NCBI GenBank assembly: GCA_037446215.1
Contig: JBBIJB010000043.1
Coordinates: 1-19,778 of the forward strand
Source of the DNA: Armatimonadota bacterium
GTDB lineage: Bacteria > Sysuimicrobiota > Sysuimicrobiia > Sysuimicrobiales > Humicultoraceae
DNA length: 19,778 nucleotides
Reading direction: 5' to 3'
This document shows, one piece after another, positions 605-19,778 of this stretch. Position 1 is the first letter of the stretch; every line of letters begins with the position of its first letter. The translations under genes and the position numbers were made by a program. Under the pieces are notes generated by a model. The model did no database searches. It worked only from the letters and a program-made list of their open reading frames with translations, and was not told the DNA's origin.

Positions 605-1129
605 CTAAGGCGCCAGAGCCTCGACCACTGTCTGTGCGAGGCGTACCGCCTCGGGCTCGGCGAGGTTCAACTCGGTGGCCTTCCCGTGCACCAGCGCGCG
701 TATCTGCCCGAGGCGATCCGGTCCAAGATCTATCGGCATGGGAGGCAGCGTCTCGGGCTCGGCGGGCGATGGCTCATCTGGCCCTCGCCCCTTCGCCGAT
801 AGCGCGGCACGGAGCCTCCGAAGCAACGCCCTGACGGCGTCGCGGACCGAGCCCGCGGCCTCCTGCTTGACGGCCTTGATGATCTCTCCGATGAGGAACT
901 GCGCGACCTCGCTTGCCACCAGCAGCGCAACAGAGGTCACCCCGGCCCGGGGCATGCCCTCGAACAGCGTCGAGGGCGCCGCTGCCAAGGCAGCGCCTCC
1001 TGCCCCATCCCGGCGCTCCAGGAACTCATCGAGCCCAGCGTCGAACCCGGCGAGCTCGCCGGGCGCCAGACGCGAGACCACGAAGCGCGCGAGCTCGCCT
1101 GCCAGCTGGTCCTGCTCGGAGTCGCTCAT
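605..1129 (-). CDS. Hypothetical protein, 174 aa, predicted helical
   Basis: ATG preceded by purine-rich GGAGAGGGAG. It fills the gap between the TPR regulator and lysC on the same strand, and the composition is protein-like. Confidence 0.8.
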   Translation of the reverse strand: MSDSEQDQLAGELARFVVSRLAPGELAGFDAGLDEFLERRDGAGGAALAAAPSTLFEGMPRAGVTSVALLVASEVAQFLIGEIIKAVKQEAAGSVRDAVRALLRRLRAALSAKGRGPDEPSPAEPETLPPMPIDLGPDRLGQIRALVHGKATELNLAEPEAVRLAQTVVEALAP

Positions 1130-1174: not shown

Positions 1175-2467
1175 CTACCTAACGCCCACCGCCTCATCCT
1201 GCGCGAGAAAGGCGCGCGCGAACATCTGCGCGGCGAGGCGATCGTTGCCGCTCTCCAGAAGCAGGAACGCGTAGTCACGGCTGACGCGGGCGATCTCGTC
1301 AGCGGCTCTCAGCCGCTCGAACTGCTCCAGGGCGTAGGCGTACCTGCGGGCTGCTTCCTCCGCGCGTCCCTGGCGCTGACAGACCGACGCGATCACCGCC
1401 TCGGCCCGCGCCGCCTCCGCGGGGTCCTGTATCTTCACCGAGATCCGGATCGCCTCTTCGGCGTGCCTTCGCGCGTCCTCCAGATCGCCGCGCAGGACGG
1501 AGGCGCGGGCAAGCTCCGTGAGCGTCTGCGCCCGCCCCGCGTCGTCTGCAAGCCTGGCTGCCACGTTGAGGCTCTGCTTCAGGGCCTCGGCGCCCTCGCC
1601 CAGACGGCCGCGGCTGATAAGCAGTATTCCTATGCTGCGCTTGACGGTGCCGAGCAGGTGGAGGTTCTCCTGCGCCTCGAACAGCGCCGCAGCCCGCTCT
1701 AGATGCGTACCCGCCAGGTCGTACGAGCGCTGCCGCTCGTAGGCCACCCCCAGGTTGAAGTGAAGCAGCCCCAGCGCGCCCAGGTCTCCGAGGGGCTCGA
1801 GCCTCTCCAGGGAGGCCTGATAGCACTCCAATGCCTGTGCCGGAAGGCCGAGCTCCGAGTAGGTACGGCCCAGATTTGCCAGCTGCCGGCCTTCGAACGC
1901 GGTATCTACCGGGGTAGAGACCCTGGCGGCCTCGAGGGCCCGTGCGAAGGCGTCTCGGGCGGCCGGGAAGTCGCGCTGCCGGAGGTGGAGAAAGCCCGTT
2001 GCGCTTGCCACCCACGCGACCAGGTCCGGCCGCCCGAGCGCGCCCGCAAGGGTACGGCCTCGCTCGAGGTGCTCGCCGGCAAGATCGAACTGCCTCAACC
2101 CGGTCAGGGCCTGACCGAGCCCTATCTGTATCTTGAAGGCCACATCGAGGGGAGCGCCCGAGAGGGACGCCCGTTCGGCGATCTGAAACGCCTCCAGCGC
2201 TCCGGTGAAGTCGTGCTGACGCAGCAGCAGGCCACCCTGCTCCAGCTTCAGCGTGACCTGGCGGCTTGGAGGCGGATCGGCCTCAAGCAGGTCGGCCAGC
2301 GGTAGGTTCAGGCGCCCCGCGAGGAGGCGGAGGGTCTCGAGCGAGGGGCGTACCTTCCCGTGCTCGAGCATGCTGATGAAGCTCTCCGACAGGTCACCCC
2401 CTGCGAGAACCCGCTGGGTTATCCCGCGGCTCTTCCGCGCCTGCCGGATCTTCTCGCCTAGTGTCAA
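1175..2467 (-). CDS. XRE-family HTH + TPR-repeat transcriptional regulator (RRNPP/NprR/PlcR-like architecture), 430 aa
   Basis: N-terminal HTH_3-type domain (LGEKIRQARKSRGITQRVLAGGDLSESFISMLEHGKVRPSLETLRLLAGRL), then roughly 8-9 TPR-like repeats (e.g. QLANLGRTYSELGLPAQALECYQASL, LHFNLGVAYERQRSYDLAGTHLERA). TTG start with AGGGG 7 nt upstream. Confidence 0.9.
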   Translation of the reverse strand: MTLGEKIRQARKSRGITQRVLAGGDLSESFISMLEHGKVRPSLETLRLLAGRLNLPLADLLEADPPPSRQVTLKLEQGGLLLRQHDFTGALEAFQIAERASLSGAPLDVAFKIQIGLGQALTGLRQFDLAGEHLERGRTLAGALGRPDLVAWVASATGFLHLRQRDFPAARDAFARALEAARVSTPVDTAFEGRQLANLGRTYSELGLPAQALECYQASLERLEPLGDLGALGLLHFNLGVAYERQRSYDLAGTHLERAAALFEAQENLHLLGTVKRSIGILLISRGRLGEGAEALKQSLNVAARLADDAGRAQTLTELARASVLRGDLEDARRHAEEAIRISVKIQDPAEAARAEAVIASVCQRQGRAEEAARRYAYALEQFERLRAADEIARVSRDYAFLLLESGNDRLAAQMFARAFLAQDEAVGVR

Positions 2468-2482
2468 GGCCGGGCCCCTATC

Positions 2483-2707
2483 CTATCCGAGCTCTCCCCA
2501 GGCCCCGCCCAGCAGCTCGCCGTCGCCATGGCCCGCGAACTGACCGCCCAACAGCTCGCCGTCGCCGTGGCCCGCGAACTGACCGCCCAACAGCTCGCCG
2601 TCGCCGTGGCCCGCTGTCTCGAGCAGGCCCGGATGGGTCGAGGCGGTCGCCCCGAGGATGAGCACCGCAACAGAGATCACAGCGAAGATCTGCCGAAGCC
2701 TTCTCAC
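2483..2707 (-). CDS. Small secreted pro-peptide (74 aa) with three AGHGDGELLGG repeats; putative signalling-peptide precursor
   Basis: GTG at 2707 with a strong SD (AAGGAGG, 2716-2722) 8 nt upstream. Sequence MRRLRQIFAVISVAVLILGATA-STHPGLLET-AGHGDGELLGGQF-AGHGDGELLGGQF-AGHGDGELLGG-AWGELG has a basic n-region, hydrophobic h-region and A-T-A signal peptidase site. The in-frame 39-nt repeats differ only synonymously. Confidence 0.85.
   Translation of the reverse strand: MRRLRQIFAVISVAVLILGATASTHPGLLETAGHGDGELLGGQFAGHGDGELLGGQFAGHGDGELLGGAWGELG
2504..2614 (-). repeat. Tandem coding repeat, 39-nt unit, 2 full copies plus a 33-nt third copy
   Basis: 2576-2614 and 2537-2575 are identical (GCG GGC CAC GGC GAC GGC GAG CTG TTG GGC GGT CAG TTC on the minus strand). 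2504-2536 has three synonymous changes. Confidence 0.97.
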
Positions 2708-2897
2708 CTGACTTCCCTCCTTCATATCGCCGGGCACCCTCCAGGGGCACGGCGCGCGATACGTGCGCAACTCCGGGACGGCAGGCCGCCCTTCATACCT
2801 TCAATCGGCGTCCAAGGTGAGTTTGTGGCGTGTGGCTAACGCGTCGAAAGGTGTGGTTGTGCTCCGGGTCAAGCGCGGGTCCATTCGACACCCCTCG

Positions 2898-2970
2898 CTG
2901 AAGTTCCTCTTCCCATCGGGCAGGAATCTGAGTCCTGCTTAAGTTCCACCCGTCGAGGCACTGAAATTCC
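2898..2970. promoter_or_regulatory. Cluster of CTnARRTTCC motifs; candidate transcription-factor operator
   Basis: CTGAAGTTCC 2898-2907, CTTAAGTTCC 2938-2947, CTGAAATTCC 2961-2970, plus an inverted imperfect copy GGAATCTGAG at 2923-2932. Confidence 0.4.
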
Positions 2971-3273
2971 GACCTCCAGGGCCTATTCGCCCTCTGGGCG
3001 GCAGGAGCAGGGCCCTCTGTCAAGAAGGCTGGGCTCAGAGCAGCAGGACCCAGGACAGTCCCATAGAGTCAGGGCCGGGGTGTCTCCTCCGGGCCGACGG
3101 TGCCGGAGGTCGTCGTTCCGGTTTCCCATCCCCGGCCCTTCCGATCCCAGGCCCCGCGGCGCCCTGCTGCGGGGCCTGGTGAACTCAGGTGGGCGGTCGA
3201 ACCCCATCCCCTGCCGCGGGTCGGGGCGGCCGCGGCAGGAGTAGGGAGCACCGCGCAAGTAGTATGGAGTGCG

Positions 3274-3320
3274 TGGCTGACAAGAGAACCAATTTGGCTG
3301 TGGTACTTTACCGGCAGTCA
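3274..3320 (+). promoter_or_regulatory. Candidate MocR-family operator overlapping an extended -10 promoter
   Basis: TGGCTG direct repeats at 3274-3279 and 3295-3300 (21-bp period) and an inverted near-copy CAGTCA at 3315-3320. TGTGG-TACTTT (TGn + -10) lies at 3299-3309, upstream of the MocR gene. Confidence 0.45.
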
Positions 3321-3395
3321 TCCCTCGCCTACCCTTACCCTGGCCTCTTACAGAGAAGTGGCCGCGCACAGGACAAGTGACCCCCAGGGGGCCGC

Positions 3396-5054
3396 ATGGC
3401 CAGATCGGCACTCTCGCGGACTTCGCCTGAAAGCCCGGTAGGGGCAGGGTTCGCGGGATTCCGAATCGATCAATCGTCGCAGATGCCCCTCTACGCTCAG
3501 ATAGCATCGGAGATCGAGCGCCGGATCGAGCGCGGCCGGCTCGTCGTCGGCGAGCGACTGCCCCCACAGAGGATGCTTGCCGAGCTGATCGGGGTCAGCA
3601 GGAATACCGCGGTCCAAGCCTATCGCGAGCTTGAGCGCCGTGGGTGGGCCCGCAGCCGCGTGGGTCGGGGCACCTTCGCCGTCCTCCCAATCGACCGCAC
3701 GGTGCCGGGCTATTCGTGGCAGCCGCAGTTCTCGACGTCCATCAGCAGGGTCACGAGCCCGTTCATGGGCGAGGTGAGCACCGCGCCGGCGGGCAGACTC
3801 AGCTTGGCATCAGGTAAGGTCGCGGCCGATCCCTCGATAATCGGAACATTCCGGCAGATGTTTGACCTGGTCCTTGAGCGGGAGGGCGCACGGGCCTTCG
3901 AGCCCGGTCCCCCGCAAGGGATCCCCGCGTTGCGCGCAGCCCTCGCGGCTCACCTTCGCGCCGGAGGCGCGGATGCCCGGCCGCAGGAGATCCTCATCAC
4001 CGCGGGGGCACGGCAGGCTCTCAGCATCCTGGCTTCGATCCTCGTTGACCCGGGAGACACCGTCGTCATCGAGGGCCCCACGTACCGGGGTGCCATCCAG
4101 GCCTTCCAGAGTGTCGGGGCGCGTATCATCTGCGTGCCAGTAGACGGCGCCGGCATCGACGTGGAGGCTCTCGAGTCCGTGCTGGCCTACACGAGACCGA
4201 AGCTCATTTATCTCGTGCCGACGTTTCAGAACCCGACCGGTGTCTCGCTTTCGCTCGAACGAAGGCATCTCCTCATCGAGGCCGCTGCCCGCCACGCGGT
4301 GCCGATCGTGGAGGACGATCCCTACTGGGAGCTGCGCTACGAGGGCACGCGGCTCCCGCGCCTGAAGGCGCTCGACACGTGGGGGGGCGTCATTCACGTT
4401 GGCACCTTCTCCAAGCTTGTCTTCCCTGGTGTCCGCGTCGGATGGATCGCCGGACCACCCAGCGTCGTCCGACAGGCCACCGTCGCCAAGGCAGGAGGCG
4501 GGCTGCACGTCAGCAGCCTCCCGCAGTGGGCGATGGCCCGGCTACTCGAGGAGAACCTGCTGGAGCCACACCTCCGCCGTGCGTGTCAGCGACTCAGGTC
4601 GAAGCGCGACCAACTGCTCGAGTCGCTAGCACGGCACACTCGCGGCCGGCTGACAGCGCGCAGACCGGAGGGCGGGTTGTTCGTATGGGCTCGGCTGCCC
4701 GCTCCCGTGCAGGCCGCGGATCTGCTCAAGAGCACGTCATCGAAGGGGGTCGACTTCGTGGCGGGCCCAGCCTTCTGGCCGAGTGGAGGCGACCCATACG
4801 CTATGCGGCTGTGCTTCGCGGGGCTCGATGAACCGCAGCTCGACGAGGCGGCCGCGACGGTGGGGCGGAGCTTGATCAACGCCCTGACAGGGACGGAGCC
4901 CGGTGAGGCAGAGATGCGGAAGCGTCCACCCGACAGCGTTGGGGAGTGTGGACGCAGAAGAGGGCGGGCCATCCGTGGGAGTGGGGCTAAGGGAGTGGGG
5001 CCCAGTACGGCGCCGGGTAGCGCAGAAGGACCGAGACCTACTCCGCCGCTGTGA
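3396..5054 (+). CDS. MocR/GabR-family regulator (GntR wHTH + PLP-dependent aminotransferase class I/II domain)
   Basis: wHTH PLYAQIASEIERRIERGRLVVGERLPPQRMLAELIGVSRNTAVQAYREL. Aminotransferase motifs PTFQNPTG, IVEDDPY and GTFSKLVFPGVRVGW (PLP lysine present). The exact start is uncertain; AGGGGG precedes ATG 3396. Confidence 0.93.
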   Translation: MARSALSRTSPESPVGAGFAGFRIDQSSQMPLYAQIASEIERRIERGRLVVGERLPPQRMLAELIGVSRNTAVQAYRELERRGWARSRVGRGTFAVLPIDRTVPGYSWQPQFSTSISRVTSPFMGEVSTAPAGRLSLASGKVAADPSIIGTFRQMFDLVLEREGARAFEPGPPQGIPALRAALAAHLRAGGADARPQEILITAGARQALSILASILVDPGDTVVIEGPTYRGAIQAFQSVGARIICVPVDGAGIDVEALESVLAYTRPKLIYLVPTFQNPTGVSLSLERRHLLIEAAARHAVPIVEDDPYWELRYEGTRLPRLKALDTWGGVIHVGTFSKLVFPGVRVGWIAGPPSVVRQATVAKAGGGLHVSSLPQWAMARLLEENLLEPHLRRACQRLRSKRDQLLESLARHTRGRLTARRPEGGLFVWARLPAPVQAADLLKSTSSKGVDFVAGPAFWPSGGDPYAMRLCFAGLDEPQLDEAAATVGRSLINALTGTEPGEAEMRKRPPDSVGECGRRRGRAIRGSGAKGVGPSTAPGSAEGPRPTPPL

Positions 5055-5098
5055 GGGGTTCGGGCAGCGGGGGAACAACGAGAGGAGGTCAAAGAGCA

Positions 5099-6415
5099 AT
5101 GAGAGGGAGGACGAACGGCTTGGAGTCCTTGCTCAAGGCGGTTGCCTGGACAGCGGTGGCCGTGCTTGCCGGTGTCACGGTGCTTTCCCCTATCGGCTCC
5201 TTGCAGGCCCTGGGGCAGGCGCGCGAGATACGCGTGGGGCTGCTCGGGGCCCGCACGGGCGTGTTCTCGGCCTTCGGCGAGCCCCAGATAAGGGGCTCGA
5301 TTCTCGCGTTCGAAGAGGCCAACCACATGGCGGCCGGGCGTCGCATCCGCGTCTTCATCGAGGACACCCAGTGCACCGCGGACATCATGATGACGAAGGT
5401 GCGCGCGCTTCACGAGCGTGACAGGGTGGACGTCGTCGTCGGGCCCACCTGTGGCGGAGAGGGCCTGGCCATGGTGGATTGGGCCCGGGGTACTGGATTG
5501 CCAGTGGTGATCGGCTACTCGGCCCCGGAGGACATCACGATGCGCCTGCGGGCGCACAACGTCGTCCGCGCGGGTTGGAGCGGTGCCCAACCGATGTTCC
5601 CGTTCGGCCAGTACGTGGCCCGGACGTTCGGATACCGCCGCATAGTCTCTATCGGACAGGACTACTCGTTCCCGTGGAACCAGCTCGGAGGCTTCGTTCG
5701 GGGCTTCTGCATGGCCGGCGGCAGAGAGGTTGTCAAGATATGGCACCCCGTCGGAACACGCGACTACAGCTCGATCATAGCGGCGATGCCGCGCGACGTC
5801 GACGCGGTGTTGTATAACGGCGCGGGGACGGACATGGTGGCGTTCTACAAGCAGTTCCGCGACTTCGGCCTCCTTGACAAGTACGTCTTGCTTGGCGCAT
5901 CAAACGCCTACGAACCGATCACCCTCCAGGAGTTGGGCGACAGCGCAATCGGCTCGATATCTGCGATCCAGTACGCCGAGACGCTGAAGACCCCGGCCTT
6001 CCTCAAGTTCCGAAACGCATACGAGAAGCGGTGGAATGAGATACCACCTACCTCCGCCGAGCACGGCTACGTGGGAGCCAGGATGGTGCTGAACGCGATC
6101 GCCGCCGTCGGGGGCAAGATCGAGGACCGTGACGCGTTCATCAAGGCGCTGCGCGCAACCAAGATGCCGGATGCCCCGCGCGGTCCCTTCTACTTGGACG
6201 AGTACGGCAACCCGGTGCAGAATATTTACATCCGAAAGGTCCAGCGCGTCGGAAACCGCCTGATCAACACGGTCATAGCGACCTTCAAGGATGTCTCTCA
6301 GTTCGGCCCGTTCGATCCAGAGGCCTACATAGCGGCGCCCCCTGACACGCGCGACTTCCCGCCGAGTGATTGCGCGGCGGTGCTCACCAGGCTCCCCCGG
6401 CTCCGCGGCAAGTAG
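5099..6415 (+). CDS. ABC transporter substrate-binding protein, HAAT/LivK-like (PBP type 1)
   Basis: ATG at 5099 with AGGAGGT SD, preferred over GTG 5051. N-terminal signal peptide; motifs IRVGLLGARTG, EDTQ, DVVVGP, GQDYSFPW, PRGPFYLDEYGNPVQNIYIRKV. Confidence 0.9.
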   Translation: MRGRTNGLESLLKAVAWTAVAVLAGVTVLSPIGSLQALGQAREIRVGLLGARTGVFSAFGEPQIRGSILAFEEANHMAAGRRIRVFIEDTQCTADIMMTKVRALHERDRVDVVVGPTCGGEGLAMVDWARGTGLPVVIGYSAPEDITMRLRAHNVVRAGWSGAQPMFPFGQYVARTFGYRRIVSIGQDYSFPWNQLGGFVRGFCMAGGREVVKIWHPVGTRDYSSIIAAMPRDVDAVLYNGAGTDMVAFYKQFRDFGLLDKYVLLGASNAYEPITLQELGDSAIGSISAIQYAETLKTPAFLKFRNAYEKRWNEIPPTSAEHGYVGARMVLNAIAAVGGKIEDRDAFIKALRATKMPDAPRGPFYLDEYGNPVQNIYIRKVQRVGNRLINTVIATFKDVSQFGPFDPEAYIAAPPDTRDFPPSDCAAVLTRLPRLRGK

Positions 6416-6459
6416 GCTCTGTGGCTGACCAGGACCGGCGAAAGCAGAACGCGCACCAT

Positions 6460-7221
6460 ATGGACCGTCAGGCACTCGAAGTACTCAACGTGGAGAGGCT
6501 CACCAAGACCTTCGGGGGCATTACCGCCCTCGACGAGGTGAGCCTCTCCATCCCTGCCGGCGAGCGCCGGGGGCTCATAGGCCCGAATGGCGCCGGAAAG
6601 ACGACGCTCTTCAACTCGATCACGGGCGAGATACCCCCCGATTACGGCCGGGTGTCGTTGTTCGGGGAAGATGTCACTCGCCTGAGCGTCCAACAGAGAA
6701 CGCGACTCGGCCTCGGCAGGACATACCAGGTCACGAACCTCTTCTTGAGCCTCACCGTCGAGGAGAACCTTTTCCTCGCCTCCGGCGGGGACGTATCAGC
6801 CAACATCCTCAGACCTTGGCGCCTCCACGCGGCCCGCCTCGACAGGGCGAGAGAGGTAGCGGAGTTCGTCGGACTGGGCGAGAGAGCCTCTGCGAGGGTA
6901 GACGCCCTAGGGCACGGCGAGCAACGCCAGCTCGAGATCGGCGTGGCGCTCGCCGCTCGCCCTAGACTGCTGATGCTCGACGAGCCGGTCGCGGGACTGG
7001 CGCCGTCTGAGCGCCAGCGCATGATGCGCTTCCTCGGGAGTCTCGAGCGTACCGTGACACTTCTCATCGTGGAGCATGACATGGATGTCGTGCTGGGTCT
7101 TGCCGATCGCGTTACGGTGCTGCACAACGGACGCGTAATCGCCGATGGCGCGCCCGAGGCAGTGCGCGCGGACGCCCGTGTGCAGGAAGTCTACATGGGC
7201 GAGTGGGTCAATCATGGGTGA
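6460..7221 (+). CDS. livG: HAAT ABC transporter ATP-binding protein (LivG-like)
   Basis: Walker A GPNGAGKT, GLGRTYQ, LGHGEQRQLE, Walker B LLMLDEP, IVEHDMD, C-terminal VQEVYMG. Alternative start GTG 6421. Confidence 0.9.
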   Translation: MDRQALEVLNVERLTKTFGGITALDEVSLSIPAGERRGLIGPNGAGKTTLFNSITGEIPPDYGRVSLFGEDVTRLSVQQRTRLGLGRTYQVTNLFLSLTVEENLFLASGGDVSANILRPWRLHAARLDRAREVAEFVGLGERASARVDALGHGEQRQLEIGVALAARPRLLMLDEPVAGLAPSERQRMMRFLGSLERTVTLLIVEHDMDVVLGLADRVTVLHNGRVIADGAPEAVRADARVQEVYMGEWVNHG

Positions 7222-7924
7222 CTACCTGCTCGAGGTGGACGGCCTGAATGCCTTCTACGGCACGAGCCATGTGCTCCAGGACGTGTCTATCGCGGTGGGC
7301 CACGAGTGCGTCGCCGTAGTTGGGCGCAACGGCATGGGGAAAACTACCCTCCTCCGCTCGATACTGCGCATTACTCCACCCGCCTCCCGTGGGCTCATAA
7401 CGTTCAAGGGTCGCCGGATCGAGGGGCTGCAGTCACACCAGGCGGCGTCCCTGGGCATAGGGTACGTCCCGCAAGGCCGCCGCCTCTTCCCCTCTCTGTC
7501 GGTCGACGAGCACCTGAGACTCACCTTCCGTAGGAGCGCCGATGGCACTGTGTGGACCCCCGACGCGGTGTACGACCTCTTCCCTGAGATCGCCCGCAGG
7601 AAGGCGCTGCCGGGGACGCGGCTGAGCGGAGGCGAGCAGCAGATGCTTGCCATCGGCCGTGCGCTGGTCACGAACCCTGCACTGCTGGTGCTGGACGAGC
7701 CCTCCGAGGGTCTCGCCCCGCTGGTCGTTCAGCACCTCATCGCAACGCTGCAGCGGTTGAGAGAGATGGGAGCTGCGCTGCTCCTCGTTGAGCAGCAGCA
7801 GAGAATCGCGGACGTGCTCGCCGATCGGGTGTACGTGCTGACCGCCGGCCGAATCGTTCACCACGCCACGGGGAAGGAGTTCGCGGTCGATGCCGAGGCA
7901 AGGCGGCAGCACCTTGGGATCTAG
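7214..7924 (+). CDS. livF: HAAT ABC transporter ATP-binding protein (LivF-like)
   Basis: Walker A GRNGMGKT, GYVPQGRRLFPSLSV, LSGGEQQMLAIGRAL, LDEPSEGLAP, LLVEQ. ATG 7214 overlaps the end of the upstream gene. Confidence 0.9.
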   Translation: MGDYLLEVDGLNAFYGTSHVLQDVSIAVGHECVAVVGRNGMGKTTLLRSILRITPPASRGLITFKGRRIEGLQSHQAASLGIGYVPQGRRLFPSLSVDEHLRLTFRRSADGTVWTPDAVYDLFPEIARRKALPGTRLSGGEQQMLAIGRALVTNPALLVLDEPSEGLAPLVVQHLIATLQRLREMGAALLLVEQQQRIADVLADRVYVLTAGRIVHHATGKEFAVDAEARRQHLGI

Positions 7925-7947
7925 GTCGTAGCCGAAGGGAGCGAGCG

Positions 7948-9186
7948 ATGGGCAAGCAGATCGCAATCGTAGGCGCCTTGGACACGAAAGGCCCCGAGTT
8001 CGCATTCGTCAAGCAGGAGATCGAGCGGCGGGGCCACACGGCCATAGTGATCGACACGAGCGTCGTAGGAGTGCCGGCGTTCTCCCCAGATGTACCGCGA
8101 GAGCGCGTGGCCGAAGCCGGGGGCTCGACGGTCGAGGAGCTGCAGGCGAAGGCCGACCGTGGGCACGCGATGGAGGTCATGACAAGGGGGGTCGCGACGG
8201 TCGTCAAGGAACTATACGACGCTGGAAGGATAGACGGAGTGCTCGCGATGGGAGGATCGGCCGGGACGATCATAGGGACCTCCGCGATGCGCGCACTGCC
8301 GGTGGGCATCCCGAAGGTGATGGTCAGCACGCTTGCATCCGGAGACACCAAGCCCTACGTCGGAACCAAGGACGTGGTGATGGTGCCTTCGGTGGTGGAC
8401 GTCGCGGGCGTCAACAGGATCAGCGCGCGGATCTACGCCAACGCCGCCGGTGCAGTCGCGGGGATGGTCGAGACGCCGACGCCCGAGATCCAGGAGAAAC
8501 CCCTCCTGGCCGCCTCGATGTTTGGAAACACGACGCCGATAGTCAACCGCTGCCGCGGCACCATGGAGGAGAAGGGGTTCGAGGTGCTCGTGTTCCACGC
8601 CACCGGGACGGGCGGTCAGACGATGGAGAGCCTGATAGAGGACGGGTACATCACCGGGGTGCTCGACATCACGCCGACCGAGTGGGCCGACGAGCTGGTG
8701 GGCGGCGTCTTGACAGCGGGCCCCGCGCGAATGGACGCGGCGCCCAAGAAGGGCATCCCGCAGGTGGTCGTACCCGGCTGCGTGGACATGGCCAACTTCT
8801 GGGCGCCCGAGACGGTGCCAGAGAAGTTCAAAGCTCGCCGCTTCCACCACTGGAATCCGAATGTGACGCTGATGCGCACCTCTCCGGAAGAAAACGCGGA
8901 GCTGGGGCGTATCATCGCCGAGAAGGTCAGTCGGTCGGCTGGACCGGCGGCCATCTTCCTTCCGCTGAAAGGCGTCTCCATGCTGGACGCGCCTGGCAAG
9001 GAGTTCTGGTGGCCCGAGGCCAACCGGGCACTGTTCGATGCTATCAAGACGCACGCCGGCGCCGGCGTCGAGGTCCACGAGCTCGACAACAACATCAACG
9101 ACGATGCTTTCGCCGACGCGGTGAGCGCCAAGATGCTGCAGTTCCTCGCAAGGACGACAGAGGGAGAGGAGCAACTCCATGGGTAA
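7948..9186 (+). CDS. Tm-1-like ATP-binding domain protein (UPF0261 family)
   Basis: [13 protein letters not shown] start, [61 protein letters not shown] motif ([11 protein letters not shown]). Confidence 0.9.
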
Positions 9187-10015
9187 GCGTATTCCGCGAC
9201 AAGCTGTCCTTGAGCGGTTTCGTGAGAAGATCGGCCGCGGCGAGCCAATCATCGGCGGCGGGGCCGGCACCGGCATCTCGGCCAAGATGGCAGAGGCCGG
9301 CGGCATCGACTTGATAATCATCTATAACTCCGGCCGCTACCGCATGGCCGGGAGGGGTTCCCTTGCCGGCCTGATGCCGTACGGCGACGCCAACGCCATC
9401 GTGATGGAGATGGCGTACGAGGTCATCCCCGTGATCAAGCAAACACCGGTCCTGGCCGGGGTCTGCGGTACCGATCCCTTCAGGGACATGGAGCTCTTCC
9501 TTGGCGAGGTGGCCCGGCTCAACTTTTCGGGCGTCCAGAACTTCCCAACCGTTGGTCTCATCGACGGCGTCTTCAGGGAGAACCTGGAGGCAACCGGAAT
9601 GGGATACGACAAGGAAGTCGAGATGATCCGGATGGCCCATGAGTTGGACCTCATAACCGCACCCTACGTCTTCGACTCCGACACGGCCATGAGGATGGCC
9701 AAGGCGGGCGCGGACATCCTCGTGCCCCACGTTGGGCTGACGACGGCAGGGACGATCGGGGCCGCGGTCGCCCTCACCCTTGACGAGGCGATCCAGAAGG
9801 TCACGGCTATGGCAGGGGCGGCAAAGGCCGTGCGGCCCGACATCATCGTGCTCTGCCACGGAGGGCCGTTCGATGAGCCGGAGAACGTTGCCAAGGCCTT
9901 GGCGAAGATGCCGGGGATCGCTGGCTTCTTTGGCGCATCCAGCGTGGAGCGGCTACCCACCGAGCGCGCCATCACCGAGCAGGTGCGCTCGTTCAAGTCG
10001 ATTAGGCTCGCCTAG
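9179..10015 (+). CDS. TIM-barrel signal-transduction / phosphoenolpyruvate-hydrolase-like family protein
   Basis: [78 protein letters not shown]. Overlaps the UPF0261 gene by 8 nt. Confidence 0.9.
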
Positions 10016-10096
10016 ATCGATGGCCAGCCCGGCCCGCCTCAACGCGCCCCGAGAGGACACCCACGGTCGGCGGGCCGGGAAGCCGGTGACGACCAG

Positions 10097-10942
10097 ATGC
10101 TGAATCTGCTGTTCCTGAACGGGCTAACCTATGCGGCGTTGCTGTTCGTCATGGCGAGCGGGCTGACTCTCGCGTTTGGACTCATGCGCATAGTGAACCT
10201 GTCGCACGGTGCCTACTACCTCGTCGGCGGGTACCTGGGCCTGACGGTCTTCAGGATTACCGGCAACTGGCCCTTGGCGTTGATCGCCGGCGGCCTCTCG
10301 ATCGCGGTCATCGCCTGCCTGATGGAGCGGGCGCTCCTGGTGTGGGTAAGGGGTAAGGAGCTGCCCGAGTCGCTGCTGACGCTCGCCGTAGCCATGATCC
10401 TCGGTGACGCCGCCGTGGCGATCTGGGGGGGCAACCCTCTCAATCTCCAGCCCCCGGCGCTGCTCACGCCGCGCTTGCAGATGCTCGGGGTGGTGTATCC
10501 GGGGTTCCGGGTCTTCGTGCTGGTCTTCGGGGTCCTCGTGGGCATTGGGCTGTGGCTGCTGCTGATGAGGACCTCGCTTGGAATGGCAGTCCGTGCGGGC
10601 GTGGATGACCGGGAGACAACCGCGGCGCTCGGCATCAATATCGGACGCACGATGACCGCGGTCTTCATGCTGGCCGGGCTGTTGGCTGGCTTCGCGGGAG
10701 TCATCGGGGGATCCTACTGGGCTCTCGCACCGGGCGAGGACTTCCAGGCGCTCGCCCTCTCGCTGGTCACTATCGTCATCGGCGGGATGGGTAGCCTGGT
10801 AGGAGCGGCCGTGGGCGCCCTCATAACCGCGATGACCCTCAGTTTCGCCACCGCCTACTTCCCGGACTTCTCGCTGTTCTTCGTGTTCGCGCCGATGGCG
10901 CTGGTTCTGGCGGTCAGGCCGCAGGGCCTATTTGGGAGATAG
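10097..10942 (+). CDS. livH: HAAT ABC transporter permease (LivH-like)
   Basis: NGLTYAALLFVMASGLTLAFGLMRIVNLSHG, RTSLGMAVRAG, IVIGGMGSL, C-terminal RPQGLFG; many TM segments. Confidence 0.9.
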   Translation: MLNLLFLNGLTYAALLFVMASGLTLAFGLMRIVNLSHGAYYLVGGYLGLTVFRITGNWPLALIAGGLSIAVIACLMERALLVWVRGKELPESLLTLAVAMILGDAAVAIWGGNPLNLQPPALLTPRLQMLGVVYPGFRVFVLVFGVLVGIGLWLLLMRTSLGMAVRAGVDDRETTAALGINIGRTMTAVFMLAGLLAGFAGVIGGSYWALAPGEDFQALALSLVTIVIGGMGSLVGAAVGALITAMTLSFATAYFPDFSLFFVFAPMALVLAVRPQGLFGR

Positions 10943-10944
10943 GG

Positions 10945-11928
10945 GTGGCCATGCGCCGGATCGGCAGTTGGGCAGTCGCCGTCGTGGGAGTGGTCCTACT
11001 CTTGACGCTACCGGGATGGATGCCCGCATACTACCTGACGCTGACCAACCGGATCCTCTTCTACAGCCTGCTCGCGGTCAGCTTCAGCTTCCTGGCAGGG
11101 AGGGCGGGTATGACCTCGCTTGGCCAGGTGGCGTTCTTCGGGTTCGCGGCCTACGCGGCGGGGATCATGACCGCCAGGTACAGCATCCCGTTCCCGTGGC
11201 CGGTTGTTGTGGGGGTAGGCGGCGCGGCACTGCTGGCCGCCGCGGCCGGACTGATCGTGATCCGAACAACCGGGATCTACTTCCTCATGATAACGCTCGC
11301 ACTCGGACAGGTGATGTGGGGAGTAGCGAATCGGTGGGTGTCGCTGACCCATGCCTACGACGGGATCCCAGGTGTAGTGCCGCCCGTGGTCATGGGGGTC
11401 GCACTCAAGAACCCGAGCAACTTCTACTTCGCGCTATTGGCCACCTCGCTCGCCTGCTTCGCCGTGATGCTGGCGATAGCGCGATCACACTTCGGCCTCG
11501 CACTAAGGGGGATAGCCGCCAGCCCCACCCGAATGGCGGCGCTTGGCTATCCGGTATCGCTACTGCGATACCTGGCCTTCGTATTGGCCGGAACGCTCGC
11601 CGGCATCTCCGGCATCTTCTACGTCTACCACACCGGGTTTGTCCACACCAGCGTCTTCGACCTCCAGCGCTCGGTCTGGATCCTGCTCGTCTCAACGCTG
11701 GGCGGAGTCGGTACGTTCGCGGGACCCATCGTTGGGGTGGCAATCGTGGTGCTGCTGGAGAGCTTCATCGGCCAGCTCACCCACCGGCACGCGACGGTAA
11801 TCGGCACGTTGTTCATGCTCACGATAATCCTGGCGCCCCAGGGGGTCACAGGGCACCTTGGCTCCATCGCTGACTACGTGGCCCGCAGGAGAGGGGCGCG
11901 CCCCGCGGCACCTGGCAGTCTGTCCTGA
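10945..11928 (+). CDS. livM: HAAT ABC transporter permease (LivM-like)
   Basis: GMTSLGQVAFFGFAAY, GIYFLMITLALGQ, SHFGLALRGI, LGGVGTFAGPIVG, APQGV. Alternative ATG 10951. Confidence 0.9.
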   Translation: MAMRRIGSWAVAVVGVVLLLTLPGWMPAYYLTLTNRILFYSLLAVSFSFLAGRAGMTSLGQVAFFGFAAYAAGIMTARYSIPFPWPVVVGVGGAALLAAAAGLIVIRTTGIYFLMITLALGQVMWGVANRWVSLTHAYDGIPGVVPPVVMGVALKNPSNFYFALLATSLACFAVMLAIARSHFGLALRGIAASPTRMAALGYPVSLLRYLAFVLAGTLAGISGIFYVYHTGFVHTSVFDLQRSVWILLVSTLGGVGTFAGPIVGVAIVVLLESFIGQLTHRHATVIGTLFMLTIILAPQGVTGHLGSIADYVARRRGARPAAPGSLS

Positions 11929-11973
11929 GGAGCGCATGCAGGGTCTGCTGTCGATGACACAGAAAGCGAAGAC

Positions 11974-12762
11974 ATGGCGAAAGCGAAGCTGCGTGGATTC
12001 CTCTTCGACATGGACGGCGTCCTGTACCGCGGGGCCCGTCCGCTGCCCGGCGCGCGCGCGATGCTCGAGGAGCTCGACCGGCGGGGTATCCCCTACGCGC
12101 TGGTAACCAACAACAGCACCCGCACGCCGCGGCAGTACGCGATCCACATGAGGAAGCTGGGCATGCGGGTCCCGGAGGGTAGGATAGTCACATCCGCTGC
12201 CGGCGTAGTCTCCCACCTTAAGGGCACACTGACGCCCGGCGACAGGGTCCTGATAGTCGGGGAGAAGCCGCTCCGGCGGTTGGTCACCCGCGCCGGATTC
12301 GTCCCGGCCTGGAAGGGAGTCGAGGCGGTAGTCGTCGGGTTGGACCGGGGGTTGACGTTTCGGAAGCTGAGCTACGCGACCGAAGCGCTGGTCGGCGGCG
12401 CGGCGTTCGTCGCCTCGAACCCCGACCCCCTGCTCCCCACCGAGAGCAGCGCCCTGCCCGGGGCGGGAGCCTTGGTGGCCGCGCTCAGCTACGCCACCGG
12501 GCGTGAGCCGGTCGTCATTGGAAAGCCCAACCCGGCGCTGCTGCGCGAGGCGATGAGGAGAACGGGCACGCGGCCGGCAGAGACCGCAATGGTCGGCGAT
12601 CAGCTGGGGACGGACATCGCGGCGGGCGCGGCCGCCGGCCTGTTCACGGTGCTGGTCAAGACAGGGGTGGTGGCGTATCGGCGGAGACGAGGAGACCCCC
12701 GGCCCGACCTCACGGTCGCGAACATGGAGGAACTGAGGAAGTGGATGGAGGCCCGCCTCTAG
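11974..12762 (+). CDS. HAD-IIA family hydrolase (NagD-like phosphatase)
   Basis: Motif I FDMDGVLY, motif II VTNNS, NPD, GKP, MVGDQLGTDI, VLVKTG. Confidence 0.93.
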   Translation: MAKAKLRGFLFDMDGVLYRGARPLPGARAMLEELDRRGIPYALVTNNSTRTPRQYAIHMRKLGMRVPEGRIVTSAAGVVSHLKGTLTPGDRVLIVGEKPLRRLVTRAGFVPAWKGVEAVVVGLDRGLTFRKLSYATEALVGGAAFVASNPDPLLPTESSALPGAGALVAALSYATGREPVVIGKPNPALLREAMRRTGTRPAETAMVGDQLGTDIAAGAAAGLFTVLVKTGVVAYRRRRGDPRPDLTVANMEELRKWMEARL

Positions 12763-16405: not shown

Positions 16406-17572
16406 ATGCGCTCAGGGCGATCTGCCACGCTCGTGCACCTGGACCGTCTGTGCGACCTTGGGCCCCGGGGCTCTGCCACGGAGGCGGAGCGCAGGGCGGC
16501 CGGCGAGCTGGCCGCGGGTCTTAGGGCGATGGGGGCGGAGGTGGAAGTCGAGGGGTTCAGGTCTCCCCCGTCGTTCGGGTACGGCTACCTCCTAGTCTTC
16601 GGCGGGGTGGCAACGGCCGGGCTCGCGGCGCCGCTCGCGCCGTGGGCCGCCGGGGGGGCGATAGTGGTCCTGCTGGTGCTGTACCTGGGAGAGCACACCT
16701 CGATAGGACCGTGGGCAGGCGCGCTCTTCGCATCGAGACCGTCCCAGAACGTGGTGGCGAGGTTCGCCAGGCCCGGCGCACGCGGGCGCCTCGTGGTCTC
16801 CGCCCACTACGACTCCTCGCGCGCGGGGCTGCTGTTCCACCCCCGGCTGGTATCGGGCATACGCACCTCGTTTCTGCTGGGCGTGGCCACGCTGGCTGCG
16901 GTTGCGGCGGCGGTGATCGCCCAGGCGGCCGGGGCGCGGGGCGCGCCGCTGGACTGGATCCGGTGGGCGGGAGGCGGCTACCTGCTCTTCGGCTGCGCGC
17001 TGGTGCTCGAGCGAGAGCTGCGCGGCCGCCACGTGGTGGGCGCGAGCGACAACGCCTCCGGGGTGGCCGTCGCGCTGTCGCTTGCCGAGGAGCTCCAGGC
17101 CCGGCCCCTCGGGAATCTCGATCTGTGGGTGGTGCTGACCGGCTGCGAGGAGGCCGGCATGGTGGGCATGCGGCGTTTCGTGGCGCGACATGGCGAGCTG
17201 GATCGCGACTCGACGCACTTCCTGATCCTGGACAACGTGGGCAGCGGCCGGCTCCGGTATGCCACCGGCGAGGGTATGATCCGGTTCTTCCCGTACCCGG
17301 GCCTTCTGGTGGCCGCGGCGAAGGAGGTCGCCGCGAGCCACCCGGAAGTCCGCCCCCTGGAGTACCGGCTGGCCTACCTGGACGCCCTGGTTCCCGCGGC
17401 CCGGGGGTACAGCACGCTCGCTCTGATCGCGATGGATGAAGCGGGCGGAATCCCGAACTGGCACTGGTACACCGACGTGCCGGAGAACGTCGACGCCGAG
17501 GTCTTGGACGCGGCCCTGGCGTTCTCGGCGGAGGTCGCGAGAGAGCTGGATCGCTCGCTGTCCCGCGCCTAG
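16406..17572 (+). CDS. Membrane-embedded M28-family metallopeptidase
   Basis: Zn-ligand motifs SAHYDS, GASDNASG, GCEEAG, LDNVG, WHWYTD. About four hydrophobic TM segments inserted in the N-terminal half. Confidence 0.88.
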   Translation: MRSGRSATLVHLDRLCDLGPRGSATEAERRAAGELAAGLRAMGAEVEVEGFRSPPSFGYGYLLVFGGVATAGLAAPLAPWAAGGAIVVLLVLYLGEHTSIGPWAGALFASRPSQNVVARFARPGARGRLVVSAHYDSSRAGLLFHPRLVSGIRTSFLLGVATLAAVAAAVIAQAAGARGAPLDWIRWAGGGYLLFGCALVLERELRGRHVVGASDNASGVAVALSLAEELQARPLGNLDLWVVLTGCEEAGMVGMRRFVARHGELDRDSTHFLILDNVGSGRLRYATGEGMIRFFPYPGLLVAAAKEVAASHPEVRPLEYRLAYLDALVPAARGYSTLALIAMDEAGGIPNWHWYTDVPENVDAEVLDAALAFSAEVARELDRSLSRA

Positions 17573-17586
17573 CCCCACGATTAGCC

Positions 17587-18936
17587 CTAGCGGGCCGAAG
17601 CTGGCCCCACGATGGCCACCGTCTGTCGGCCCAGGTAGCGCCGGGCCACACGCGCCACGTCCTCGGGCGTGACCTTCTCTATCTCCCTCGGGAAGCGCTC
17701 GTCGTAGTCGAACCCCACGCCGAGGATCTCGTACCAGCCAAGGTAGAACGCCTGCGCCTCCAGGTCTTCCCGCGAAAGGGCATAGCGGCCGACCACGCCC
17801 CGCTTAGCCGCCTCCACCTCCTCGAGCGGAGGCGCGGCCGCGCGCAGGCGCTCGACCTCTGCCAGCATCGCCCCCACGACCTTGGACGTGTTCGCCGGAT
17901 CGGTCCCCGCGATCAGGCGGATGTGGCTGGGTCCCGAGCGAACCGGCAGCGAGGACCCAACCTGGTAGGCCATCCCGCCCTTCTCGCGGATCTGGACGAA
18001 CAGCCGCGACGACATCCCCTCTCCCAGCAGGGCATTCATCACGCGGAGGGCGGCGAAGTCCGGATGCCCGACCGGCACCGCGAGATAGCCCAGAGAGATC
18101 CAGGAGGCGGCCACCGGCCGGGTCTCCCTGACCTCGACAGCGGTTCCTGCCGGCGTGGCCAGGGCCCGCTCCACCAGACGCAGCCATCTCGAGCGACGGG
18201 GAGGCGGCTCGCGCCGGAGCCCTTTGAAGGCGCGGCCAGCCGCGTCCAGCGCCGCGGATCTGGTCACGTTGCCCGCGATCGAGAGGACCATGTTCGGCGC
18301 GGTGAAGTGCGTCCGGTAGAACTGGATGAGCTGCTCGCGGGTCAGGGCGGCGACCGTCGCTTCGTAGCCGAGCACCGGCTGGGAGTAGGGATGGTAGGGG
18401 TAGAGCGCCTCCAGCATCAGGTCCGTCGCCCGCTGCAGCGGCTGGTCCGCGTTCTGGCGGATCCTCGAGAGGCCGATGGAGCGCTGCACCTCCACATCCC
18501 TGACCTCGAAGCGGGCGTTCGTCAACAGGTCGGCCAGCAGCTCCATCCCGACGCCGAGGTGGCGGCTCGGCGTGACGACGTAGAGCGAGGTGAAGTCCGT
18601 GCCGGTTCCCCCTCCGAGCAGGCCTCCCACTCCCTCGATCGTCTGCGCTATCTCGGCAGCCGAGCGGCTTGCCGTTCCGCGGACGAGCATGCTTCGAGCG
18701 AAGAAGGTGATTCCGCTCTCGTCGTGTCTCTCCACGCGCGGGCCGGCGTCTACGACCGCCTCGATCACTACGAGATCGCTCGATCGGCTCTCCTTCACCA
18801 GGACAACCAGCCCGCCGTCCAGGAGGTGCCGGGAGACGGGCTGGCGGGCGGCTGCCGGGGGGGCACCCGCTCCGGGTGCGGCCGAGAGCGCCAGGGCCGC
18901 GGAGAGCGTCGCTACGAGCGCAGGGATCCGCACCAC
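17587..18936 (-). CDS. M16 (pitrilysin/MPP-like) peptidase, non-catalytic subunit with signal peptide
   Basis: M16 fold motifs (RGTASRSAAEIAQTIEGVGG, HPYSQPVLG, SSRLFVQIREKGGMAY). The HXXEH position reads FFARS. N-terminal signal peptide. Confidence 0.9.
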   Translation of the reverse strand: MVRIPALVATLSAALALSAAPGAGAPPAAARQPVSRHLLDGGLVVLVKESRSSDLVVIEAVVDAGPRVERHDESGITFFARSMLVRGTASRSAAEIAQTIEGVGGLLGGGTGTDFTSLYVVTPSRHLGVGMELLADLLTNARFEVRDVEVQRSIGLSRIRQNADQPLQRATDLMLEALYPYHPYSQPVLGYEATVAALTREQLIQFYRTHFTAPNMVLSIAGNVTRSAALDAAGRAFKGLRREPPPRRSRWLRLVERALATPAGTAVEVRETRPVAASWISLGYLAVPVGHPDFAALRVMNALLGEGMSSRLFVQIREKGGMAYQVGSSLPVRSGPSHIRLIAGTDPANTSKVVGAMLAEVERLRAAAPPLEEVEAAKRGVVGRYALSREDLEAQAFYLGWYEILGVGFDYDERFPREIEKVTPEDVARVARRYLGRQTVAIVGPASAR

Positions 18937-18938
18937 GG

Positions 18939-19778
18939 CTACCTCCCCCCAGGCTTGATCACGGCCACCGCGTACCGGCGGGTGTCGAGGATCCTCCTCG
19001 CGGCCCGCCGCACCTCCTCCGGGCCGATCCGACGTACCCGCTCCACGTAGGAGAGCCCGAAGCCGAGATCTGCCACCGTCGCATAGAACCCGAGGCTGAA
19101 GGCGCGGCCCCTGGTGGTGTGCGAGCCGTAGAGATGCTCCCCCTCCAGCAGGTTCTTGGCACGGATGAGCTCCGCCTCCGAGATCCCTTCTTCTGCCACC
19201 GCGCGCAGCTCCGAGACGATGGCCGCCTCGGCGCGGGAGGCCAGCGCGGGGTCCACCACGGCCGAGATGACAAAGGGCGAAGGGTCCACGGTCGACAGGT
19301 AGGAAGCGCTGATGCTCTGCGCGAGGTTCGCTCCCTCCACCACGCGCTGGCGCAGCCGGGCGCCGAGCCCCCTGCCCAGCGCGTAGGCAAGCACGTCCGC
19401 GGCGTCCGAGTCGGGGTCTCTCACAGCCGGCCCGGGGAAGCCGATTGAGATGTAGGCGACGCGCACGTCGGCCTCGACCTCGTTTCGGCGCACCGCCTCC
19501 AGCGGCGGCTCCACCGTATGCGGCCTCCGGGCCGGGGGGCCGGCCCGGAGGGTGGAGTAGGCCTGCCGCACCTTGGCCACCGCCTCATCCGACCGAACGT
19601 CGCCTACCACGACCACGACGATGTTGGCTGGAACGTAGTGCGTCCTGTAGAAGCGCAGCAGCGCCTCCCTTGGCATCCGCTCTATCGTCTCTCTGGTCCC
19701 GAGGACCGAGCGTCGATATGGGTGCGCGGTGTAGAGTGTGGCCCTCATGAGCTCATGCGCCCGCGTGGCGGGCGAGCC
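18939..19778 (-). CDS. M16 peptidase, C-terminal part (start lies beyond the right edge)
   Basis: Frame is open to the window edge. HPYRRSVLGT, FYRTHYVPANIVVVVVGD, GISEAELIRAK. Ends 2 nt before the partner M16 gene. Confidence 0.9.
   Translation of the reverse strand, partial: GSPATRAHELMRATLYTAHPYRRSVLGTRETIERMPREALLRFYRTHYVPANIVVVVVGDVRSDEAVAKVRQAYSTLRAGPPARRPHTVEPPLEAVRRNEVEADVRVAYISIGFPGPAVRDPDSDAADVLAYALGRGLGARLRQRVVEGANLAQSISASYLSTVDPSPFVISAVVDPALASRAEAAIVSELRAVAEEGISEAELIRAKNLLEGEHLYGSHTTRGRAFSLGFYATVADLGFGLSYVERVRRIGPEEVRRAARRILDTRRYAVAVIKPGGR

Follow-up and report, generated by a model that had tools for sequence, protein, structure and literature searches.

A 19,778-nt stretch of DNA (hereafter the window; contig JBBIJB010000043.1, contig 43 of assembly GCA_037446215.1) carries on its minus strand a gene for a 74-aa secreted-type pro-peptide and, directly downstream, a gene for a 430-aa protein that combines an XRE-type helix-turn-helix (HTH) with tetratricopeptide repeats (TPRs). 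Going by sequence comparison, these two genes probably form one operon for an RRNPP-like module, i.e., a secreted peptide and its cytoplasmic HTH-TPR receptor, outside Bacillota and with the gene order reversed. This had been proposed from the letters of the window alone (referred to as the sequence-only reading), and the in-silico comparisons supported it. Judged from its conservation, the pair is real and old. What appears to be new here is the peptide gene standing first, the diderm candidate phylum, the vertical, core-like inheritance, the cores themselves and repeat numbers of up to at least 8.

By NCBI taxonomy, the host belongs to Candidatus Sysuimicrobiota (formerly CSP1-3), with close relatives that include Candidatus Fervidifonticultor. 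Its assembly comprises 2.16 Mb in 149 contigs, is 91% complete and has 68% G+C. The sequence-only reading had held that the host taxon could not be fixed from the window; this was overturned, the host being placed in Candidatus Sysuimicrobiota/CSP1-3 and having outer-membrane and lipopolysaccharide (LPS) genes. The genome gave a match to Omp85/BamA of 114.7 bits (cut-off 24) and one to LpxC of 286.1 bits (cut-off 27). Since both are encoded, the host is presumably diderm, with an outer membrane that contains LPS. Comparisons within the phylum were made on 94 genomes, comprising one order and seven families (f1-f7).

Conservation of the peptide gene beside the receptor gene

Receptor orthologues (E<=1e-40) were found in 69 of the 94 genomes. 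By family, the numbers were 28/33 for f1, 17/22 for f2, 0/1 for f3, 21/23 for f4, 0/12 for f5 and 1/1 for both f6 and f7. The host's own genome has one full-length copy. We fetched 92 receptor loci and scored the 86 that had at least 200 nt of upstream sequence. A locus was taken as positive when the 450 nt upstream on the receptor strand contained an open reading frame (ORF) of 28-140 aa with Lys/Arg ahead of a 12-residue uncharged stretch of mean hydropathy at least 1.9. Signal peptides were called throughout by a simple hydropathy rule, not by SignalP. By this mini-ORF rule, 55/86 loci were positive, compared with 2/86 for the opposite-strand control. The genome background, taken upstream of 899 long ORFs, was 88/899, and fell to 27/899 once the rule also demanded a ribosome-binding site and an ORF end no more than 200 nt away.

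When the orthologues of at least 44% identity (44-100%; f1 and f2) were examined, a co-oriented, signal-peptide-like mini-ORF was observed directly upstream in all of the 43 assessable loci. Of these, 39 were positive by the rule, three by eye (start-finding had failed) and one was cut by the contig end. This last locus (L010) has 207 nt before the contig end, and yet shows five VSAGHGDGG repeats. The mini-ORF had a ribosome-binding site in the 42 complete loci, and the gap between the peptide gene and the receptor gene ranged from 15 to 149 nt. Two loci in the same identity range lacked the receptor N-terminus and were left out as not assessable. According to the sequence-only reading, receptor homologues without an adjacent secreted small ORF would speak against the pairing; an adjacent ORF was present in 43/43.

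To this was added the pattern of variation in the cores. Seven genus-level loci contain 23 core copies, found by amino-acid pattern and amounting to all copies in those precursors, and each encodes AGHGDGEL[LI]. The 27-nt core has nine variable sites: seven third positions, two first positions of Leu codons (CTG/TTG, once ATC = Ile) and no second position. Because the core-codon variation is almost all synonymous, the peptide sequence is, on this pattern, under purifying selection and hence translated.

In the window, an alternative in-frame ATG at 2725 would lengthen the pro-peptide to 80 aa. It is the GTG at 2707, not this ATG, that aligns with the ATG/GTG starts and the ribosome-binding sites of the orthologues. 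The N-terminus has a basic n-region (MRRLRQ), a hydrophobic h-region (IFAVISVAVLILGA) and a small-residue c-region with an AxA-like site, as called by the simple rule. AGHGDGELLGG occurs three times (residues 32-42, 45-55 and 58-68; period 13 aa), and Tandem Repeats Finder reported a 39-nt period at 2505-2614, with 2.8 copies and 97% matches. Thus the 74-aa ORF with a strong Shine-Dalgarno sequence (GGAGGG, 7 nt before the GTG), a signal peptide (by the simple rule) and three 11-aa cores, as described by the sequence-only reading, was borne out. The copy number of three is that of the assembly alone: when four public DNA runs were mapped to 2300-2900, the contigs stopped inside the array, none spanned it, and they gave no variants in the ORF. 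Among the public runs listed for this DNA, none was of RNA. Since short-read contigs break in the 39-nt array, repeat numbers here and in related metagenome-assembled genomes (MAGs) may be mis-assembled. No Pfam family model matched the 74-aa peptide, and in NCBIfam no family exceeded the cut-off for the peptide, the receptor or two neighbouring ORFs. A lipoprotein signal on the pro-peptides was considered and dropped, as there was no conserved lipobox Cys.

The cores differ from clade to clade. The host's own genus has GHGDGELL in 2-4 copies. Other f1 genera have GHGDGPVL x5, GHGDGEVL x3, GHGDIEAL x2, GDGxIEVI x2, DHGGGEAF, GVGDGDTTF and GHGDGG x5. A second f1 subclade has single cores, among them the GxGDxDSF type, right after an AFA signal-peptidase-like site (AFA/GRGDMDSFG..., AFA/GSGDFDSFG..., AFA/GHPDADFFG..., the slash marking the junction). 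For f2, the core is GHGGGELL, in 1-3 copies, placed directly after the AFA site or at the extreme C-terminus, and for f4 there are AGDD-type ends and long ...PQGDDNGPGAVxGVPPLV... arrays of 2 to at least 8 units. Over the whole set, a precursor holds from one to at least 8 core copies. In multi-core precursors an aromatic residue and Ala stand ahead of each core (QFA/G, GWA/G), like the AFA/G of single-core forms. We read these junctions as the trace of duplications that took in the cleavage site, where processing would occur.

A quick maximum-likelihood tree of 80 receptors showed that core type follows receptor clade. The differences between clades are, by analogy, like pherotype diversification. 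The sequence-only reading had proposed to look for a small upstream ORF that co-varies with the receptor. The upstream ORF was found, and core type does follow the clade, but the clades equal taxonomic families, and co-variation as a proof of co-evolution was dropped for this reason.

Among 20 distant paralogues sampled (27-37% identity), 10 have a signal-peptide mini-ORF of their own for an unrelated-looking peptide, with the C-terminal motifs AGDVGPGGG, ADGPGWNGGG, AGENLPNGN, GDDPPDSD x2 and GQDGPGQ x2. Eight f4 loci (L081, L082, L085-L088, L091, L099) adjoin a tRNA gene and have no peptide ORF in the ~450-700 nt upstream. In six of these eight the tRNA is tRNA-Thr(GGT), and no peptide ORF was found within ~0.5-1.6 kb on either side. 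At least two of the genomes with such tRNA-adjoining receptors (G053 and G080) possess a second receptor with a multi-core GDDNGPG precursor. These f4 receptors, one clade that always adjoins a tRNA gene, may be orphan or eavesdropping receptors; they resemble the peptide-less receptors discussed for RRNPP systems in a part of PMC9765709.

Conservation across loci is confined to the two genes and the DNA upstream of them. No conserved downstream target genes were found, the ORFs downstream of 19 loci forming no common cluster (the largest had five members). The 174-aa ORF downstream in the window (605-1129) has relatives in the same genus only, where they are not adjacent to the pair. No receptor relative was found in viral contigs, and no full-length one on plasmids, where two partial TPR matches (Nostoc) were obtained. 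As far as these distributions go, the module appears to be vertically inherited and core-like. In f2 loci such as L029, L030, L033 and L074, the gene immediately upstream of the peptide-receptor operon encodes a cold-shock protein (CspA-like).

Architecture and relatives of the receptor

The receptor TTG is separated from the pro-peptide stop by 15 nt (2482-2468) on the same strand. The 28 complete orthologues are 428-432 aa long and start with GTG at the same place, bar one row printed ACG. Pfam matched HTH_3 to residues 7-60 (E 3.2e-10), and the TPR models TPR_12 (5.6e-29), TPR_2 (5.2e-16), TPR_1 (1.4e-14) and TPR_MalT (8.8e-12). Hence the co-oriented 430-aa XRE-HTH + TPR gene 15 nt downstream was confirmed as the sequence-only reading had described it. 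In the PDB, the profile matched the corresponding HTH domains in PlcR, DdrOC and SinR. The LANLG and HFNLG motifs, which had been pointed out for their Asn residues, are indeed present, and N198 and N238 are near-invariant in 23 orthologues. Their use as a mark of RRNPP receptors did not hold, since the Asn of NLG motifs is a feature of the general TPR consensus.

A model of the receptor was made with AlphaFold2 (23 orthologues in the alignment; pLDDT 92.2, pTM 0.75), and consists of five N-terminal helices followed by 18 paired helices. With this model Foldseek placed LGN/Pins first, and RapJ, RapF, RapI and a phage Rap were among the first 50. A second, Foldseek-independent search covered all 48,161 PDB representatives. 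The RRNPP members matched were RapI (Z 30.5 over 354 residues), phi105 Rap with peptide (30.4), pLS20 Rap (26.6), RapH (25.5), NprR-NprX 4gpk (26.4 over 341 residues), AimR (21.7 and 20.0) and PlcR, the last with Z 21.0 and with model residues 1-282, including the HTH, covered. The comparison with RRNPP structures proposed by the sequence-only reading therefore gave a resemblance to Rap, NprR, AimR and PlcR, and an equal one to LGN/Pins. As modelled, the receptor appears built like an HTH-bearing RRNPP receptor, and its fold would fit generic TPR proteins equally well.

At the level of sequence, the orthologue profile matched PlcR in the HTH only (4.7e-9) and Rap105 weakly (1.9e-5). A profile of the wider family matched RapF (6.6e-20) and NprR (2.6e-17), and aligned with PlcR in one collinear stretch over HTH and TPR (2-270 vs 5-273, E 1.9e-18). 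Common descent with the RRNPP(A) family is plausible from these profiles and the model. Prediction of a complex between pro-peptide residues 24-74 and the TPR domain (residues 62-430, alignment supplied) scored 0.01 against a mark of 0.32, which is not evidence either way.

In databases the receptor goes under the names 'hypothetical', 'helix-turn-helix' or 'tetratricopeptide repeat protein' only. When 1.84 billion representatives were searched with a profile, 1,010 proteins were obtained at E<=1e-30, many of them long TPR proteins and dozens of them, 420-470 aa in length, aligned end to end. Two of the end-to-end relatives, P0156 and P0181, come from MAGs labelled Bacillota and are 28-29% identical to a Sysuimicrobiota paralogue. 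The ESM Atlas has look-alike HTH_3+TPR_12 clusters, with Dormiibacterota, Actinomycetota and Chloroflexota as their commonest phyla. A single-protein metagenome scan with P0153 gave only three weak TPR matches.

Among known systems, NprR-NprX of the Bacillus cereus group shares with the present pair an XRE-type HTH at the receptor's N-terminus ahead of a long TPR superhelix, a similar total size and a neighbouring gene for a small pro-peptide, here of Sec type by the simple rule; in NprX the active part lies towards the C-terminus. In contrast to that system, the peptide gene here is upstream and presumably co-transcribed rather than downstream, the host is of a diderm candidate phylum and not Bacillota, the core is unrelated, precursors can be multi-core, and no protease gene or conserved target lies beside the pair. 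With PlcR-PapR of the same group there is HTH + TPR with collinear similarity, as well as a palindromic box upstream of the own genes. PlcR is known for its box and its autoregulation, and papR lies downstream. PlcR is shorter, however (293-residue chain), and TTCA-N7-TGAA is the sequence of the present box. Rap proteins are not known to carry an HTH. The Rap-Phr systems are found in Bacillus and its mobile elements, with phr downstream, whereas here the repeats reach at least 8 and the units are near-identical. Likeness to Rap-Phr of phages phi3T and phi105 lies in the multi-copy precursor and in the TPR fold, which gives its best RRNPP matches with RapI and phi105 Rap. In these phage systems the pro-peptides are tandemly duplicated, with several pheromone copies per secreted precursor, as stated in a part of PMC11343458.

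The signature used by RRNPP_detector has five points, as given in a section of PMC10075063: a pro-peptide of 10-100 aa, Sec secretion by SignalP, a receptor of 250-500 aa, TPRs and direct neighbourhood. The present pair agrees in the first and in the third to fifth (74 aa, with 36-88 aa in the listed orthologues; 430 aa; TPRs; 15 nt apart), and in Sec secretion by the simple rule only. In the portions of the sources concerned, the RRNPP_detector survey was illustrated on Firmicutes and viral genomes (PMC10075063), and an RRNPPA survey of Firmicutes found the family concentrated in Bacilli (PMC9765709). Our literature search found no paper linking RRNPP to CSP1-3 or Armatimonadota, and the 'RRNPP-like' papers it listed concern Bacillota; in the main text of two CSP1-3 genome papers, the words 'quorum' and 'tetratricopeptide' are absent. 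The reversed gene order, the high-GC host and the unrecognised core had all been correctly noted from the window alone.

Upstream DNA and surroundings of the operon

Upstream alignments of the orthologues contain the pattern GGAAyTTCA-N9-GTCGAA, which was present in 21/25 f1 orthologue loci vs 0/63 others. A looser form, AGGAnTTnA...GTCGAAT, is visible in the f2 alignment. The 9-mer GGAACTTCA occurs 19 times in the host genome, the sole intergenic copy being that at 2907-2899. A general promoter type was rejected for GGAACTTCA...GTCGAA, as the loose pattern is found three times in the genome and the 9-mer is intergenic only here. It is possibly an alternative-sigma promoter specific to the operon.

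Some 20-25 nt upstream of this element lies a 15-bp palindrome, TTCA-N7-TGAA. The exact box TTCA-N5-9-TGAA was found at 17/25 f1 and 7/17 f2 orthologue loci vs 1/46 paralogue and f4 loci, and shuffled sequences gave 0-0.15 loci per group. From this distribution we infer that a receptor dimer binds the TTCA-N7-TGAA box and controls its own operon. That f1 and f2 share the box fits, because the HTH is near-invariant across both. The features of the pair and of its upstream DNA are collected in Table 1.

Table 1. Coordinates of the peptide gene, the receptor gene and associated elements in the window.
Feature	Position (nt)	Strand	Details
Receptor gene	1175..2467	-	430 aa, TTG start
XRE-type HTH	2282..2467 (residues 1-62)	-	Pfam HTH_3; five model helices; near-invariant across the phylum
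TPR superhelix	1184..2269 (residues 67-428)	-	18 helices; Pfam and AlphaFold2 model
Pro-peptide gene	2483..2707	-	74 aa; GTG start 2707-2705, TAG stop 2485-2483
Ribosome-binding site GGAGGG	2715..2720	-	7 nt ahead of GTG; aligns with AAGGAGG of orthologues
Signal-peptide-like N-terminus	2639..2707	-	Residues 1-23: MRRLRQ, IFAVISVAVLILGA, TAS
Three GHGDGELLGG cores	2504..2611 (2611-2582, 2572-2543, 2533-2504)	-	Ala before each; QFA joins
Promoter-like element GGAACTTCA-N9-GTCGAA	2884..2907	-	Upstream alignments of orthologues
Degenerate palindrome TTAA-N7-TCAG, presumed operator	2928..2942	-	Copy of TTCA-N7-TGAA
Two direct half-site-like copies	GGAATTTCAG 2970-2961; GGAACTTAAG 2947-2938	-	Upstream alignments

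A GC-rich hairpin-forming element of ~72 nt was observed at 3069-3141 (minus-strand orientation given). It is 83-95% identical in f1 loci, is located upstream of the peptide gene, in every case by a few hundred nt, is single-copy in the genome and has no Rfam match. Its consensus fold has 22 pairs, only two of them with compensatory changes. As part of the module, this element may act as a small RNA, as an insulating terminator or as a site for protein binding. A 194-codon open frame (2983-3567, minus strand) overlaps both the intergenic region and the conserved, non-coding hairpin; it has no family match and is probably not a gene.

Divergent from the peptide operon, on the plus strand at 3396-12762, are a MocR-type regulator (GntR HTH + aminotransferase fold), then a Liv-type ABC transporter operon that contains a UPF0261 gene and a PEP-hydrolase-like gene (7948-10015), and then a HAD hydrolase. 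This region is not kept beside the peptide operon in other genera. At 16406-19778, ~14 kb from the pair, are the genes of an M28 peptidase and, next to each other, of two M16 (insulinase-type) peptidases; that these peptidases might process the pro-peptide is pure speculation. Rfam gave no match in the window at the gathering threshold, nor in 2700-3500 at E<=1. The tRNA search and the sigma-70 scan of the window found no tRNA and no promoter, respectively, and the latter scan gave a single terminator-like match (1413-1425), at shuffle level.

Proposed mechanism, alternatives and meaning

If the two genes act as an RRNPP-like module, the 74-aa pro-peptide would be exported by Sec and its signal peptide removed, as its sequence suggests, and proteases would free one to three short peptides around GHGDGELL. 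The peptide would then re-enter the cell through one of the many Opp-type transporters, whose genes are present, and would bind the concave face of the TPR superhelix. Binding would be expected to alter the contact of the dimeric XRE-HTH with the TTCA-N7-TGAA box upstream of the module's own promoter-like element, closing a feedback. Such a system, we infer, would depend on cell density. The 2.16-Mb host genome gave 32 SBP_bac_5 and 19 OppC_N matches. These numbers represent a striking expansion of peptide uptake systems (Opp/Dpp type) for a genome of this size. A route back into the cell is thus available via ~30 Opp-type binding proteins, by which this peptide may be taken up.

Several observations weigh against such a module. 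In the search of 48,161 structures, LGN (Z 31.8) and Pins (Z 31.1) scored at least as high as Rap, and MalT domain III reached 23.3. By sequence, too, generic TPR proteins (OGT, designed and eukaryotic ones) outscore the RRNPP members, and the Pfam family RNPP_C had no match in the host genome at E<=0.1. No peptide gene was seen for roughly half of the distant paralogues, nor for some of the f4 clade. As the receptor clades are the taxonomic families, vertical co-inheritance explains the core pattern without co-adaptation. In the window itself the palindrome is degenerate, with 3/8 half-site letters differing, the receptor has a TTG start preceded by a weaker ribosome-binding site, and the leader is longer than in relatives. 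Omp85 and LpxC are present, so that Sec export would end in the periplasm. The composition of the cores, moreover, with much Gly, Asp, Glu and His, may also be compatible with the binding of metal or calcium.

The last of these points leads to an explanation that we regard as unlikely, namely that the small protein is a secreted effector (a metal/calcium-binding peptide, an envelope or matrix component, an antimicrobial or a modified peptide) and the HTH-TPR protein a co-transcribed regulator sensing something else. Besides the composition of the cores, repeat numbers of up to at least 8 would suit a bulk product; TPR domains bind many ligands, and the top fold matches include non-RRNPP proteins. 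The His and acidic positions are, however, not kept across clades (GxGDxDSF, GDGxIEVI and GDDNGPG have no His), and the pair has no conserved neighbour that encodes a modifying enzyme, an exporter or an immunity protein. Many paralogous receptors, moreover, retain a different peptide of their own, a pattern that would be difficult to account for if receptor and peptide were not matched. Another explanation is that the mini-ORF is open by chance, or that it is an upstream ORF with a regulatory role and a non-functional product; in favour of this are the many spurious ORFs that high-GC genomes hold and the lack of a family model matching the peptide. This is highly improbable and already contradicted by the comparative data: frame, ribosome-binding site, start and signal-peptide-like N-terminus are kept in 42/43 orthologue loci of two families, the core variation is synonymous, and the opposite-strand control gave only 2/86.

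A further explanation, which we consider quite unlikely, retains the contact between peptide and receptor and makes the loop private to the cell, the peptide passing into the periplasm and straight back via Opp. What the module reports on would in that case be secretion, proteolysis in the periplasm or the capacity for peptide uptake, and not population density. The bit scores of Omp85 and LpxC, which point to an outer membrane with LPS, and the very large Opp/Dpp complement are in keeping with this. So is the vertical inheritance like that of a core gene, with no phage or plasmid copies found, unlike the RRNPP systems rich in mobile elements of which a part of PMC9765709 tells. On the other hand, the rapid diversification of cores between clades and the distinct peptides of the paralogues would be expected for signals told apart between cells, and multi-copy cores raise signal output. 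Small peptides, moreover, may pass porins.

Returning to the RRNPP-like module as the reading we favour, we hold it possible, if somewhat short of probable, that RRNPP-type signalling is not confined to Bacillota. It would then be an old, vertical core system of a diderm, LPS-bearing phylum, with the peptide gene first, precursors of up to at least 8 cores, pairs diversified by duplication and some receptors left as orphans. The relatives in Bacillota-labelled MAGs and the clusters of Dormiibacterota, Actinomycetota and Chloroflexota would in that case be parts of one much wider peptide-receptor family. In the relevant parts of PMC10075063 and PMC9765709, RRNPP systems count as a feature of Gram-positive Firmicutes and of the mobile elements of these bacteria; Proteobacteria and Actinobacteria, according to a passage of the former, employ small molecules in their place.

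Such signalling would extend to further taxa and to a further type of cell envelope if a conserved pro-peptide/HTH-TPR pair serves it throughout an uncultured phylum that has outer-membrane genes. The pair also poses the question of how a peptide signal gets across an outer membrane, or is kept in by it. The CSP1-3 phylum has no cultures, as stated in a part of PMC11604079. The defined peptides, receptor and DNA box would offer a handle on the biology of this uncultured phylum, and the natural series of diverged cores and receptors would be a ready-made data set for peptide-receptor specificity.

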